Assembly: GCA_965214865.1 (NCBI GenBank) | Contig: CBDCCN010000004.1 | Location: 3,338,942-3,402,941 of the forward strand | DNA: 64,000 nucleotides | Direction: 5' to 3' | Source: Vicinamibacterales bacterium | Lineage (GTDB): Bacteria; Acidobacteriota; Vicinamibacteria; Vicinamibacterales; UBA8438 | In this document: positions 41,644-43,793 of the stretch, one piece after another | Layout: each line of letters opens with the position of its first letter | Numbering within the stretch: the first letter of the stretch is position 1 | The notes under the pieces: model-generated | Told to the model about the DNA's origin: nothing | Seen by the model: the letters and a program-made list of their open reading frames with translations, nothing else | Databases searched by the model: none | Made by a program: the position numbers and the translations under genes

Positions 41644-42159
41644 ATGGCGGAGACAACGGGGGCGGCGGCCGGGAGGCGCGCCGGACGGCCGGCGGCGAAG
41701 GGGCGCGACCTCCCCGACCGGCCCCGCGACTACTCCGACCCGTACGCCACCGGCCTGTACTTCCCGAAGATCAGGCGGAAGCGGTCGAAGCTGCACGGCT
41801 GGGGCGTCTTCGCGCTCGAGGACATCCACAAGAACAAGCGGATCATCCACTACGCGGGCGAGAAGATCCGGGTGCGCGACAGCCTGGTGCGGGAGGATCG
41901 CTACCTGACGCGGGGCGAAATCTGGTGCTTCCGGATCAACCGCCTGTTCGTGCGCGACGGCCACGTCGGCGGCAACCTCGCCCGTTTCATCAACCACGCG
42001 TGCAGGCCGAACTGCTACGTCGCGGTGATCGTGGATACGATCTGGATCATCGCCGCGCGCAACATCGCGGCGGGCGAGGAGCTGACCTTCCACTACAACA
42101 CGGAGGGAGACGGCGACATCCCGTGCCGCTGCCGGCCCGGGTGCCCGTATCGGCTGTGA
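41644..42159 (+). CDS. SET-domain lysine methyltransferase with post-SET Cys cluster
   Basis: HGWGVFA, RFINHACRPNC, GEELTFHY, CRCRPGC. Confidence 0.92.
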   Translation: MAETTGAAAGRRAGRPAAKGRDLPDRPRDYSDPYATGLYFPKIRRKRSKLHGWGVFALEDIHKNKRIIHYAGEKIRVRDSLVREDRYLTRGEIWCFRINRLFVRDGHVGGNLARFINHACRPNCYVAVIVDTIWIIAARNIAAGEELTFHYNTEGDGDIPCRCRPGCPYRL

Positions 42160-42854
42160 CGCCGCAAGTCGTCTACCTGCACGGGTTCGCGTCGTCCCCG
42201 GCGTCGTCCAAGGCCGCCTTCCTCGGCCGGCGGCTCGCCGCGCACGGCGTGGCGTTTCACTGTCCCGATCTCAACCAGCCCGATTTCTCGACGCTCACCG
42301 CGACGCGGATGATCGAGCGCACGGTGGCGCTGATCGCGACGCTGCCGGCGGGACCGGTGGTGCTCTTCGGTTCGAGCCTCGGCGCGTTCGTCGCCCTGCA
42401 GGTCGCCGAGCAGGCGGCGGCGGGGACGCAGCAGCCGATCACGCAGCTCGTGCTCCTGGCCCCGGCGCTCGACTTCGGCCGGCGGCCGGTGGGCGATCTG
42501 GGCGACGCCGGCATGGCCCGCTGGCGCGAGACCGGCTGGTGGGAGCTGACGCACTACGCTTCCGGCGAGCCGACCCGCGTGCACTACGAGATGTTCCGCG
42601 ACGCGCGGCGCTACGACGCGTTCGCCGCGCGGCGCCCGGTCCCCACCCTCGTTCTCCAGGGGCGGCGCGACGACGTGGTCGATCCGGACATGGTTGCGCG
42701 GTACGCCGCGGCCCGGCCGCATGTGACCCTGGTCATGCTGGACGACGATCACCAGCTCGGCGGCAGCCTCGAGCGGGTGTGGTCGGAATCCGCGCCCATT
42801 CTGGGCTTGGCCCGAGTCGCGGAGGCGGCAGCGGTCCCACGGGCGCCCGGCTGA
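42156..42854 (+). CDS. YqiA/YcfP-family esterase
   Basis: VYLHGFASSPASSKA, PDLNQPDF, GSSLGA, LLAPA, DDDHQL; GTGA overlap. Confidence 0.9.
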   Translation: MTPQVVYLHGFASSPASSKAAFLGRRLAAHGVAFHCPDLNQPDFSTLTATRMIERTVALIATLPAGPVVLFGSSLGAFVALQVAEQAAAGTQQPITQLVLLAPALDFGRRPVGDLGDAGMARWRETGWWELTHYASGEPTRVHYEMFRDARRYDAFAARRPVPTLVLQGRRDDVVDPDMVARYAAARPHVTLVMLDDDHQLGGSLERVWSESAPILGLARVAEAAAVPRAPG

Positions 42855-43021
42855 TACCGGTTGCTGTTCCGCCGCGGCGCCCCTGCTCGACGACCTCGCG
42901 CACGCGCTGCGCTCGTACGCCGCGGCGTCACGGATGATCCCTCGCGCGCGCCCGGCTGATACTCGTCGATGAAGACGATGCACGGGGCGTTCTTCGATGA
43001 TCCCGCGCGCCCGGCTGATAC
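42831..43021. repeat. Three direct repeats separated by unrelated spacers (CRISPR-like mini-array, no cas genes)
   Basis: Core GCGCCCGGCTGATAC at 42843, 42948 and 43007; copies 2 and 3 begin GATGATCCC; spacers of 75 and 33 nt. Confidence 0.8.
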
Positions 43022-43031
43022 CCTGTCGGCG

Positions 43032-43793
43032 GTGCTGTCGGACGGCTCCCGGCCGCTCGTCTCGATCGTCGTGCCCGTGCTCCGGGACACCCCGGAGCTC
43101 GCCGGTCTGCTCGACGCCCTGCGGGTGGATCGGCTCGACGCCCGCGTCGAGGTCATAGTGGTCAACGGCGACGCCGCCGACCGCTCCCTCGACCCGTTGC
43201 GCGGGCGCATGACCACGGTGCGCTGGATCGACAGCGAGCCGGGACGGGGCCGCCAGATGAACGCCGGGGCGCGCGCTTCGTCCGGCCGGTGGCTGCTGTT
43301 CCTGCACGCCGATGCGCGCCTCGGGGCCGGCTGGCTGGCCGCGCTCGCCGAAGCCGACAGGCGGCCGGAGATCGCAGGGGGTGCGTTCCGCCTGACCCTC
43401 GCCTCGGCGCATTGGGCGGCCCGCGTGGTCGAACGCGGCGTGGCGGCGCGGACGCTCTGGCTGGGGTTGCCGTACGGCGATCAGGCGATCTTCGTCCACC
43501 GGAAGGCGTTCGAGCACCTGGGCGGCTACCGGCCGATCGGATTGATGGAGGACGTCGACTTCGTTCGACGCCTGCGCCGGCGGGGGCGGCTCCGGTTTCC
43601 GCCGGTGTCGGTACGGGTATCGGCGCGGCGCTGGGAGCGCGACGGCTGGTGGCGGCGGACGGGCATGAACCTGATGCTGCTGGGGCTCTACTTCGCCGGT
43701 GTCGCGCCCGACCGGCTCGCGCGCTGGTACTACGGGCCGTACCGCGGCGCCCCGGTCCGGCGCGCACCCACGGTCGGCGCGCCGCAAGGGTGA
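43032..43793 (+). CDS. GT2 glycosyltransferase, TIGR04283-like
   Basis: VSIVVPV, GRGRQMNAGA, LLFLHAD, LPYGDQAIF, GGY....LMEDV, SARRWE; GTG43032 lies 7 nt after extended -10 TGATACCCT (ORF track starts at 42969). Confidence 0.88.
   Translation: MLSDGSRPLVSIVVPVLRDTPELAGLLDALRVDRLDARVEVIVVNGDAADRSLDPLRGRMTTVRWIDSEPGRGRQMNAGARASSGRWLLFLHADARLGAGWLAALAEADRRPEIAGGAFRLTLASAHWAARVVERGVAARTLWLGLPYGDQAIFVHRKAFEHLGGYRPIGLMEDVDFVRRLRRRGRLRFPPVSVRVSARRWERDGWWRRTGMNLMLLGLYFAGVAPDRLARWYYGPYRGAPVRRAPTVGAPQG

Follow-up and report, generated by a model that had tools for sequence, protein, structure and literature searches.

The stretch of DNA analysed here, referred to as the window, comprises 64,000 nucleotides (nt) from a Vicinamibacterales bacterium (G000:C4:3338942-3402941, where G000 is the genome under study and the other G numbers are congeners). 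At positions 42831-43021, between an alpha/beta hydrolase gene and a family-2 glycosyltransferase gene, it contains three direct copies of a short segment that ends in GCGCCCGGCTGATAC, with an insert between each copy and the next. An initial annotation had read this as an orphan repeat-spacer-repeat arrangement, possibly created by a type I-E Cas1-Cas2 integrase that inserted a CRISPR spacer off-target. The features of the locus, including the longest open reading frames (ORFs), are as follows.

42150..42854, plus strand: alpha/beta hydrolase gene (UPF0227/Abhydrolase; Pfam UPF0227 1.9e-22 and Abhydrolase_1; ORF 41925-42854)
42831..42857, plus strand: repeat copy 1, the oldest and most diverged, GCGGTCCCACGGGCGCCCGGCTGATAC, compared by alignment to copies 2 and 3 and to the single-copy congener alleles
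42858..42932, plus strand: composite 75-nt insert, made up of 5 unmatched nt, the 18-nt match, 2 nt, the 41-nt recN copy and 9 nt
42863..42880, plus strand: 18-nt exact match to G000:C1:900776-900759 (minus strand), borderline by BLAST (E 0.004)
42883..42923, plus strand: 41-nt exact copy of a recN-like gene (C1:66790-66830; BLAST), sense as in the donor gene
42933..42962, plus strand: repeat copy 2, 30 nt, with 4 extra nt (TCGC) relative to copy 3
42963..42995, plus strand: 33-nt exact copy of ftsH (C4:485743-485775, Walker-B region; BLAST), antisense to the ftsH coding strand
42996..43021, plus strand: repeat copy 3, 26 nt, still joined to the conserved sequence before the glycosyltransferase gene, with a single-copy homologue in congeners
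43022..43034, plus strand: conserved CCTGTCGGCGGTG, the last three letters being the likely glycosyltransferase start codon, GTG (43032-43034)
43032..43793, plus strand: family-2 glycosyltransferase gene (Glycos_transf_2 1.7e-10; ORF 42969-43793)

A repeat search lists the core shared by the three copies as a three-copy family, and in a MAFFT alignment each is made up of G(G/A)TCCC, 2-6 variable nt and GCGCCCGGCTGATAC, which establishes the degenerate first repeat as real. Copies 2 and 3 of GATGATCCC..GCGCGCCCGGCTGATAC differ solely by a 4-nt indel and enclose exactly 33 nt, as had been read from the letters; the positions and sequences first given for them are correct. Spacing is uneven, at 105 nt and then 59 nt when measured end to end (63 nt start to start for copies 2-3). 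The locus therefore lacks the near-identical, regularly spaced repeats of a functional array, with copy 1 diverged and an indel between the other two, and its repeat is of no family served by the resident cas genes: the target resembles only a decayed type I-E repeat, described below.

Each piece was compared by BLAST with the whole genome (5.3 Mb, 97.8% complete). The 33-mer, the reverse complement of which encodes KNAPCIVFID and had been recognized as FtsH-like, has an exact nucleotide donor, matching C4:485743-485775 at 100% identity over 33 nt, or 34 nt if one ambiguous junction base is counted. The domains of the donor gene (Peptidase_M41, AAA and FtsH_ext in Pfam) are those of ftsH. The donor match is plus to plus and ftsH lies on the minus strand, so a plus-strand RNA running across the insert would be antisense to ftsH, as the initial annotation had deduced; it would be sense to recN. 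The recN-like donor encodes a 554-aa protein with SMC_N and AAA_23 domains and a RecN-like N terminus. A gapped alignment to this gene reaches 48/51, but all three mismatches lie in the flanks, and the match does not clearly extend beyond 41 nt. No target duplication flanking the recN piece itself was found in the locus sequence.

The 75-nt stretch had been taken for a second spacer, a claim that the analysis does not support: it is a patchwork that no single integration explains. Outside the 18-nt and 41-nt pieces it has no BLAST match in the genome, its last 9 nt may represent diverged target flank, and the 18-nt match may be due to chance. Chance is not an explanation for the ftsH and recN copies, because a 5.3-Mb genome such as this contains few isolated exact matches 33-41 nt long; exact self-match pairs of at least 28 nt amount to 96 pair rows genome-wide, mostly from small repeat families. 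The flanks of the donors, that of the 18-nt match included, are unrelated to those of the locus, and junction microhomology for the ftsH and recN pieces is restricted to 0-1 nt.

That the structure is an artefact of assembly or sequencing, or a chance likeness, is hardly credible. Both copied pieces exceed a 31-mer, which is why short-read assembly graphs break there and why the possibility deserves mention. Logan contigs from four public runs in two studies (2019 and 2024-25) cover 42500-43400 and reproduce every junction. One contig of 789 nt spans 42894-43400, and other contig graphs branch exactly at the 41-nt and 34-nt copied pieces, the loose ends being the recN and ftsH flanks. The support is only partly independent, since one run may be the source of the assembly itself. 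The public contigs differ solely by an A>C at 42591, present in the older study's two runs, and this suggests that there is a second source with a slightly different sequence. Exact matches of 33 and 41 nt would, moreover, not be expected by chance.

Comparison with relatives provides the ancestral state. Wherever a genome of the same genus gave a match, the hydrolase and glycosyltransferase genes are neighbours, and the junction between them was read in 11 congeners. In nine of these (G008, G010, G001, G005, G003, G009, G007, G002 and G012), a single copy of the target, free of any insert, is followed directly by the conserved CCTGTCGGCGGTG. The empty single-repeat allele that had been anticipated in relatives is thus present in most of those compared. 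The two remaining congeners have insertions of their own. In G014, the site holds a small inserted ORF with NARIDDLNANV-like repeated units and its own TGATAC-type upstream sequence (L009:1150-1500, the L numbers being pieces of the relatives' sequence). In G013, the closest relative (its flank is 92% identical), the homologous segment occurs as two identical copies of 32 nt that surround an unrelated 37-nt insert. Alignment shows that both boundaries of this duplication coincide with those in G000, the lengths of 32 and 26 nt differing because of indels inside the segment. The G013 duplication arose independently, and the coincidence of its ends identifies the site as a recurrent target with sequence-defined ends. 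Directly upstream in G013, a 73-nt unit consisting of a 38-nt copy and a 35-nt insert is repeated 2.5 times (L003:2284-2467) and forms a small multi-copy neo-array that contains one insert twice. No donors for the G013 inserts at the locus were found in the G013 genome. An attribution of its 32-nt duplication to a type I-C system with 32-nt repeats proved wrong; the second G013 array has repeats of ~36-37 nt and a period of 72-75 nt.

What machinery for spacer acquisition does the genome encode? There is one Cas1, a 569-aa Cas4-Cas1 fusion, whose neighbours are Cas2, a Cas3 whose HD domain is C-terminal, a protein of the GSU0053 family and RAMP proteins. This gene set has the make-up of type I-U/I-G. 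The proposal of a type I-E Cas1-Cas2 therefore survives only in part: the lineage does possess Cas1-Cas2, but in G000 it is solely the Cas4-Cas1 fusion, associated with 36-nt repeats, and I-E cas1 and cas2 were not found. In the accompanying array (C3:168654-183004), 198 identical repeats of 36 nt separate 197 spacers, whose lengths run from 34 to 45 nt with a mode of 36. By length, the spacers number 4 (34 nt), 41 (35 nt), 57 (36 nt), 49 (37 nt), 29 (38 nt), 9 (39 nt), 3 (40 nt), 2 (41 nt), 1 (42 nt) and 2 (45 nt); none of the 197 is of 33 nt. No native spacer matches its own genome in full, and the partial matches are of 19-23 nt only (7 rows). Within the same locus lies a unit of ectopic type (C3:183550-183657), a 36-nt duplication with a 36-nt insert, situated in and just past the short gap between cas2 and cas4-cas1 with its second copy reaching the last 4 nt of the fusion gene. 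A Cas4/Cas1 orthologue with 85-94% identity over its full length occurs in 11 of 14 congeners, G010 and G001 included; that of G013 is 91% identical. Near-identical repeats number 389 in G010 and 304 in G001, and the arrays of G013 and G014, whose repeats are variants, are large as well.

A scan of G000 for two-copy direct repeats (exact over at least 18 nt, spacing 30-140, native array and tandem repeats excluded) returned 185 pairs with a strikingly non-random distribution: 37 are at spacing 72 and 80 at 71-75, with 0-3 at most other spacings. Among pairs with an exact duplication of at least 30 nt, 39 of 56 lie at spacing 71-75; for those of at least 26 nt, there are 16 pairs at spacing 59-69 versus 2 at 78-100. 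Extension of the pairs gave 60 units (59 non-redundant) with duplications of 33-41 nt and spacings of 69-77, the commonest duplication lengths being 37 nt (20 units) and 36 nt (13 units). Examples are found at C4:2881145-2881252, C1:736110-736217, C4:3324326-3324435, C4:2890630-2890739 and C1:576543-576651. For ten units, a full-length donor with at least 97% identity lies elsewhere in the genome; for the other 48 there is none. A search for self-copies flanked by abutting repeats likewise returned units with a 36-38-nt duplication and a 34-37-nt self-derived insert. For the two units tested, an empty single-copy site, recognized by the two query halves falling on one overlapping copy, is present in 11/14 and 7/14 congeners. 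Other duplications around self fragments, which had been predicted, are thus numerous and non-random in length; the predicted dimensions, 26-30 nt around 33 nt, are not theirs, the typical unit being 36-37 nt around 34-36 nt.

Because both lengths match the resident array, off-array integration by Cas4/Cas1-Cas2 is the only explanation offered for these ~59 units. Selection for in-frame insertions in genes was considered as a source of the 72-nt peak and dropped, a crude test based on ORFs and third-position GC content placing 7 of 11 'genic' units and 20 of 49 others at 72 nt. The duplicated targets are unlike the I-G repeat, p<0.05 being reached by 4 of 60. A TTN protospacer-adjacent motif (PAM) is found at only 1 of the 10 self-derived inserts, or 2 of 10 if the ambiguous junction base is given to the spacer, and therefore could not be used to orient the units. 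There is a bias at the ends, 16 of 59 duplications ending in AC or starting with GT compared with ~11% expected, and the native repeat ends in GAAAAC. The ftsH unit falls outside this 72-nt class: its period is 59 nt, its duplication is ~10 nt short and its insert is 33-34 nt.

The resident I-G-like Cas4/Cas1-Cas2 could nevertheless have made the scar, if local sequence rather than the 36-nt ruler fixed both cuts and so produced a short duplication. It is the only Cas1-Cas2 in the genome, and some 59 ectopic units match it in size, ten of them with exact self donors of 34-36 nt, a range at whose low edge the 33-34-nt ftsH match lies. There is a shoulder of shorter units at spacing 59-69, the 41-nt recN piece is within the native spacer range, and the target ends in ...GATAC, which recalls the bias towards AC and the native ...GAAAAC. 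G013 is also telling, in that a genome without I-E matches, with its closely related I-G orthologue, duplicated the homologous segment between the same two boundaries. Against all this, the 59 units have duplications of 33-41 nt, a range from which 26/30 nt is far removed, the native array offers no 33-nt spacer and only four of 34 nt, and the target is unlike the I-G repeat. The ftsH donor has no TTN PAM, although only 1-2 of the 10 self-derived I-G-type units have one, and the likeness to type I-E in donor flank and target, to which we now turn, would have to be a double coincidence. On balance, we regard an I-G origin of the scar as possible but doubtful.

Type I-E systems have left relics in the genome. 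A decayed I-E-like array is located at C1:889907-890360 on the minus strand, with a ~61-nt period and ~8 repeats by eye, seven of which retain a CGGGGATCAAC core; conservation is confined to the 3' half, CGGGGATCAACC, with strong divergence in the 5' halves. About 7 kb from it lies a Cas4-like fragment (C1:897691-897801), 71% identical to residues 91-125 of the fusion protein and interrupted by one stop codon. At C2:179220-181744 (L139:9220-11744), also on the minus strand, is the remnant of an I-E operon: an N-terminal cse1 fragment (profile positions 1-132 of 450) with cas5e and cas6e, both of which look intact. No cas3, cse2 or cas7e is among its genes and no cas1 or cas2 follows them; downstream are GmrSD-like, AAA-fragment, cytosine-methylase and DUF772 transposase genes. 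Cse1 and Cas7e are each found in 10 of 14 congeners.

The ftsH unit fits these relics in several respects. Comparison of repeats, as proposed originally, shows a resemblance between the duplicated target in its minus-strand reading (GTATCAGCCGGGCGCGCGGGATCATC) and the relic I-E repeat of the same genome. Copy 2 has a similarity score of 14, which 19 of 20000 random 30-mers from the genome attain, and copy 3 one of 12, which 173 of 20000 random 26-mers attain; for similarity to the I-G repeat, 7297 and 2239 of 20000 random segments score as well as copies 2 and 3, respectively. On the minus strand, the 33-nt insert starts with G and the donor has AA directly upstream (CAA then G), an AA|G reading that falls in the orientation set by the I-E-like target. 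AAG is the E. coli I-E PAM, the G entering with the spacer. In this orientation, the ftsH unit is on the 'leader' side and the most diverged copy is distal, as in a real array. The insert is thus of spacer length, within a duplication of roughly repeat length (33 nt between 30 and 26 nt, dimensions that suit I-E and not I-G), and is traceable to an exact protospacer in ftsH with a CAA|G flank. One further unit of the genome (C4:1012256) has a 28-nt duplication, a 32-nt insert starting with G and I-E repeat mimicry (p ~0.012). In G014, which keeps cas7e, there is a five-repeat array (L098:1559-1830) of I-E dimensions, with a 60-61-nt period and a non-canonical repeat, GTCCCGTTCGGGCGCGCGCGGGACGGTGC, the core of which resembles the locus target on the minus strand.

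Taking these dimensions, the minus-strand mimicry of the relic repeat and the AA|G donor together, we attribute the young unit to type I-E. The locus would then be a natural scar of off-array ('ectopic') CRISPR spacer integration, or neo-CRISPR, left by an I-E integrase since lost, a specific reading in which our confidence is evenly divided. The broader proposition, that a Cas1-Cas2 integrase of either the I-E or the I-G type left the scar, we consider probable. Beyond the I-E fit, the reading draws on the duplication-insert-duplication structure, the empty site of congeners, the recurrence in G013, the genome-wide traces of such a process and the public contigs. We infer the chemistry and the order of events to have been as follows. 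Cas1-Cas2 would have cut the two strands a repeat-length apart at a repeat-like sequence, at GATAC|CC before the start of the glycosyltransferase gene, and joined a spacer-sized fragment to both strands, with gap repair duplicating the target on either side. The inserts would have come from the cell's own chromosome (ftsH and recN), as expected if fragments generated during repair were captured. At least two rounds would be needed, an older one, since rearranged, between copies 1 and 2, and a young one that yielded copy 2, the ftsH piece and copy 3. The young unit would be the product of a type I-E adaptation module once present in the lineage and later deleted.

Several observations weigh against this attribution. 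In a genome that is 97.8% complete, I-E cas1 and cas2 were not found: the single Cas1 and Cas2 matches are in the I-G locus, and the I-E Cas2 family has no match at all. There is also a problem of age. The relic I-E array is heavily decayed, whereas the ftsH unit has no substitutions in its 33-nt insert and copies 2 and 3 have none between them, only the 4-nt indel; if adaptation was lost together with the array, the ftsH unit looks too young. The duplication measures 26/30 nt where 28 would be expected, and a cut made according to the published ruler would lie 2 nt further on. A recN piece of 41 nt is impossible as a 33-bp I-E prespacer, and the 75-nt insert containing it, with no flanking duplication of its own and a possible third donor, fits no single model. 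The same boundaries were used in G013, around a 37-nt insert, in a genome with no Cse1 or Cas7e match, so a non-I-E integrase can use the site. Finally, AA|G was noticed post hoc, and just one other unit in the genome, that at C4:1012256, combines I-E dimensions with I-E repeat mimicry.

No integrase need be invoked if the site, which is GC-rich and partly palindromic, suffered a break or a stalled fork and repair proceeded by repeated template switching of a polymerase, in the manner of microhomology-mediated break-induced replication (MMBIR) or fork stalling and template switching (FoSTeS), or by end joining that captured fragments. Pieces of 18, 41 and 33 nt would then have been copied from distant loci, and renewed copying of the local sequence would account for the duplications. 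Templated insertions of the MMBIR/FoSTeS kind share with the locus the combination of short pieces from distant loci and a local duplication. The unequal lengths of the pieces (18, 41 and 33-34 nt), their origin in three distant places and the way in which the 18-nt and 41-nt pieces abut within one 75-nt insert lacking its own duplication are all readily accommodated, as are dimensions atypical for the resident CRISPR system and a site that is recurrently unstable in the subclade, with other insertions in G013 and G014. Template switching by MMBIR, however, usually involves junction microhomology of at least 2 nt, and the ftsH and recN junctions, with 0-1 nt, fall below this. Repair would also leave unexplained the clean duplication-insert-duplication structure of the young unit, with its spacer and repeat sizes, the independent event in G013 at the same two boundaries, and the sharp 72-nt period of the genome, a length signature tied to the array that only a measuring integrase explains. 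We judge repair alone to be an unlikely origin.

Off-target ('non-canonical') integration giving rise to neo-CRISPR loci is a known phenomenon, described by Nivala, Shipman and Church (2018, Nat Microbiol 3:310) and cited in later work (10.1101/148544, PMC6698737, PMC7054753, PMC11788318). As represented in those citing sources, the cases were observed in E. coli that over-produced Cas1-Cas2, while two other species yielded no more than 'circumstantial evidence'. To the extent of that account, the locus shares the spacer-sized insert, the repeat-sized duplication of a non-CRISPR target, the repeat-like features of the target and the capacity of the product to seed an array, three copies being present here. 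It differs in being natural and fixed, with chromosomal donors, empty sites in congeners and dozens of other units in the genome, and in that the cognate I-E integrase is gone.

Type I-E adaptation can be compared in its dimensions. In the E. coli studies, the 28-bp repeat is measured by a ruler acting 8 nt after GCGGG (PMC5039180), prespacers are ~33 bp (PMC5224486) and adaptation as a whole depends on two molecular rulers (PMC5039180, PMC5224486). The 33-nt insert, the duplication of ~28 nt, the GCGGG in the 3' half of the target, a spacer that begins with G and AA upstream in the donor all correspond; the 26/30-nt duplication, the lack of a leader and of cognate cas1-cas2, and the misfit of the older 75-nt insert do not. 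For type I-U/I-G, a study of Geobacter sulfurreducens (PMC6547450) describes a Cas4-Cas1 fusion that integrates mainly 36-bp spacers at the array, with a TTN PAM in 50% of distinct spacers and >80% of the total. The resident system of G000 has, as far as that description extends, the same make-up and predominant 36-bp spacer, and the 72-nt units match it. Its ectopic inserts, unlike those spacers, are off-array and mostly without TTN, and the ftsH unit has the short duplication already noted.

A copy of a usually essential host gene within a spacer-like insert invites comparison with self-targeting spacers. The locus insert is an exact copy of such a gene, ftsH, but lies outside a functional array, and its repeats match no resident CRISPR repeat. 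Self-targeting CRISPR spacers that match the host chromosome were reportedly documented by Stern et al. in 2010. Processing of the insert into a guide is unlikely, because it lies outside a functional array and between repeats unlike the resident ones, and any immune role of the scar would be hypothetical. In the literature searched, where Nivala et al. was represented by citing papers only, natural ectopic units that are fixed, number in the dozens and have identified self donors were not described, nor was such a case for type I-G. The kind of event is therefore known and the locus is a new natural case of it; the surprising part is the genome-wide, lineage-specific scale.

That scale was assessed in relatives with equal 400-kb samples per genome, each of 20 pieces of 20 kb. 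Direct-repeat pairs, with those at spacing 70-76 in brackets, number 12 (6) in G000, 90 (42) in G013 (L044-L063), 37 (9) in G014 (L091-L110), 0 (0) in G010 (L064-L083) and 7 (1) in G001 (L111-L130). Pairs at spacing 70-76 are thus ~7 times denser in G013 than in G000, and absent or nearly so in G010 and G001. In these samples, the ectopic units are lineage-specific, accumulating only in the ~5.3-Mb genomes G000, G013 and G014, although G010 and G001 have the Cas4/Cas1 orthologue too, with arrays that are larger. The idea that G013 integrates everywhere through loss of its array proved wrong, as it has large arrays with a variant 36-nt repeat beside its Cas4/Cas1. A second spacing peak occurs at 102 nt, with 17 of 90 pairs in the G013 sample; in G000, 7 of the 185 pairs are at 102 and 8 at 108.

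The locus is a natural, datable example in which donor, empty site and recurrent target have all been identified, and the units together form a natural data set from which the choice of wrong targets by integrases and the strictness of their rulers can be studied, as well as giving an insight into the possible birth of new CRISPR arrays. Since they are located at gene ends and before genes, they also gauge the mutational cost of adaptive immunity. The contrast between sister genomes that have the same module points to a fidelity factor, a candidate for comparative search. A more far-reaching proposal, which we put forward tentatively and as rather improbable, is that the adaptation modules of the G000/G013/G014 subclade are or were chronically mis-targeted, making ectopic integration a major natural insertion process and a nursery of arrays, and that the ftsH self-spacer selected for deletion of the I-E system. 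If this were true, there would be ~60 fixed units in G000 and, by extrapolation from the 400-kb sample, several hundred in G013. The ftsH unit with its PAM-like flank would have made I-E interference dangerous, and the resulting selection for loss of cas3, cse2, cas7, cas1 and cas2 would have left the remnant of truncated cse1, cas5e and cas6e.

Whatever its origin, the insertion has consequences on both sides. The stop codon of the hydrolase gene, TGA at 42852-42854, is inside repeat copy 1; the hydrolase stop is ~40 nt earlier in most congeners compared, G013 and G014 likewise reading further. On the other side, the junction GATAC|CC at 43021/43022 marks the integration point and leaves 26 nt of original upstream sequence before the glycosyltransferase gene. 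The frame from GTG 43032-43034, the likely start, runs into a conserved PLVSIVVP. The longest ORF now begins at an ATG (42969) within the ftsH-derived insert, which could give the enzyme a 21-residue N-terminal extension. The effects of the scar are structural: the hydrolase ends in copy 1, other sequence stands beyond the first 26 nt upstream of the transferase, and an in-frame ATG has been gained. Repeat 3 had been credited with most of an extended -10 box of the glycosyltransferase gene, a claim that would be a guess: a simple sigma-70 promoter and terminator scan of 42700-43150 found neither. In its favour is the conservation of TGATACCCTGTCGGCGGTG, which, being present as such or as a close variant in all 11 congener loci compared, is probably functional.

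Two minor observations concern other repeats in the genome. Positions 697-720 of the window (C4:3339638-3339661) supplied, in reverse orientation, an exact piece of 24 nt to the ectopic unit C4:1461342-1461442, which has a 38-nt duplication, a 63-nt period and an 8-nt junction overlap. At C1:741713-741820, two repeat copies 66 nt apart end in GGGGATTGAAAC and look like a type I-C repeat.

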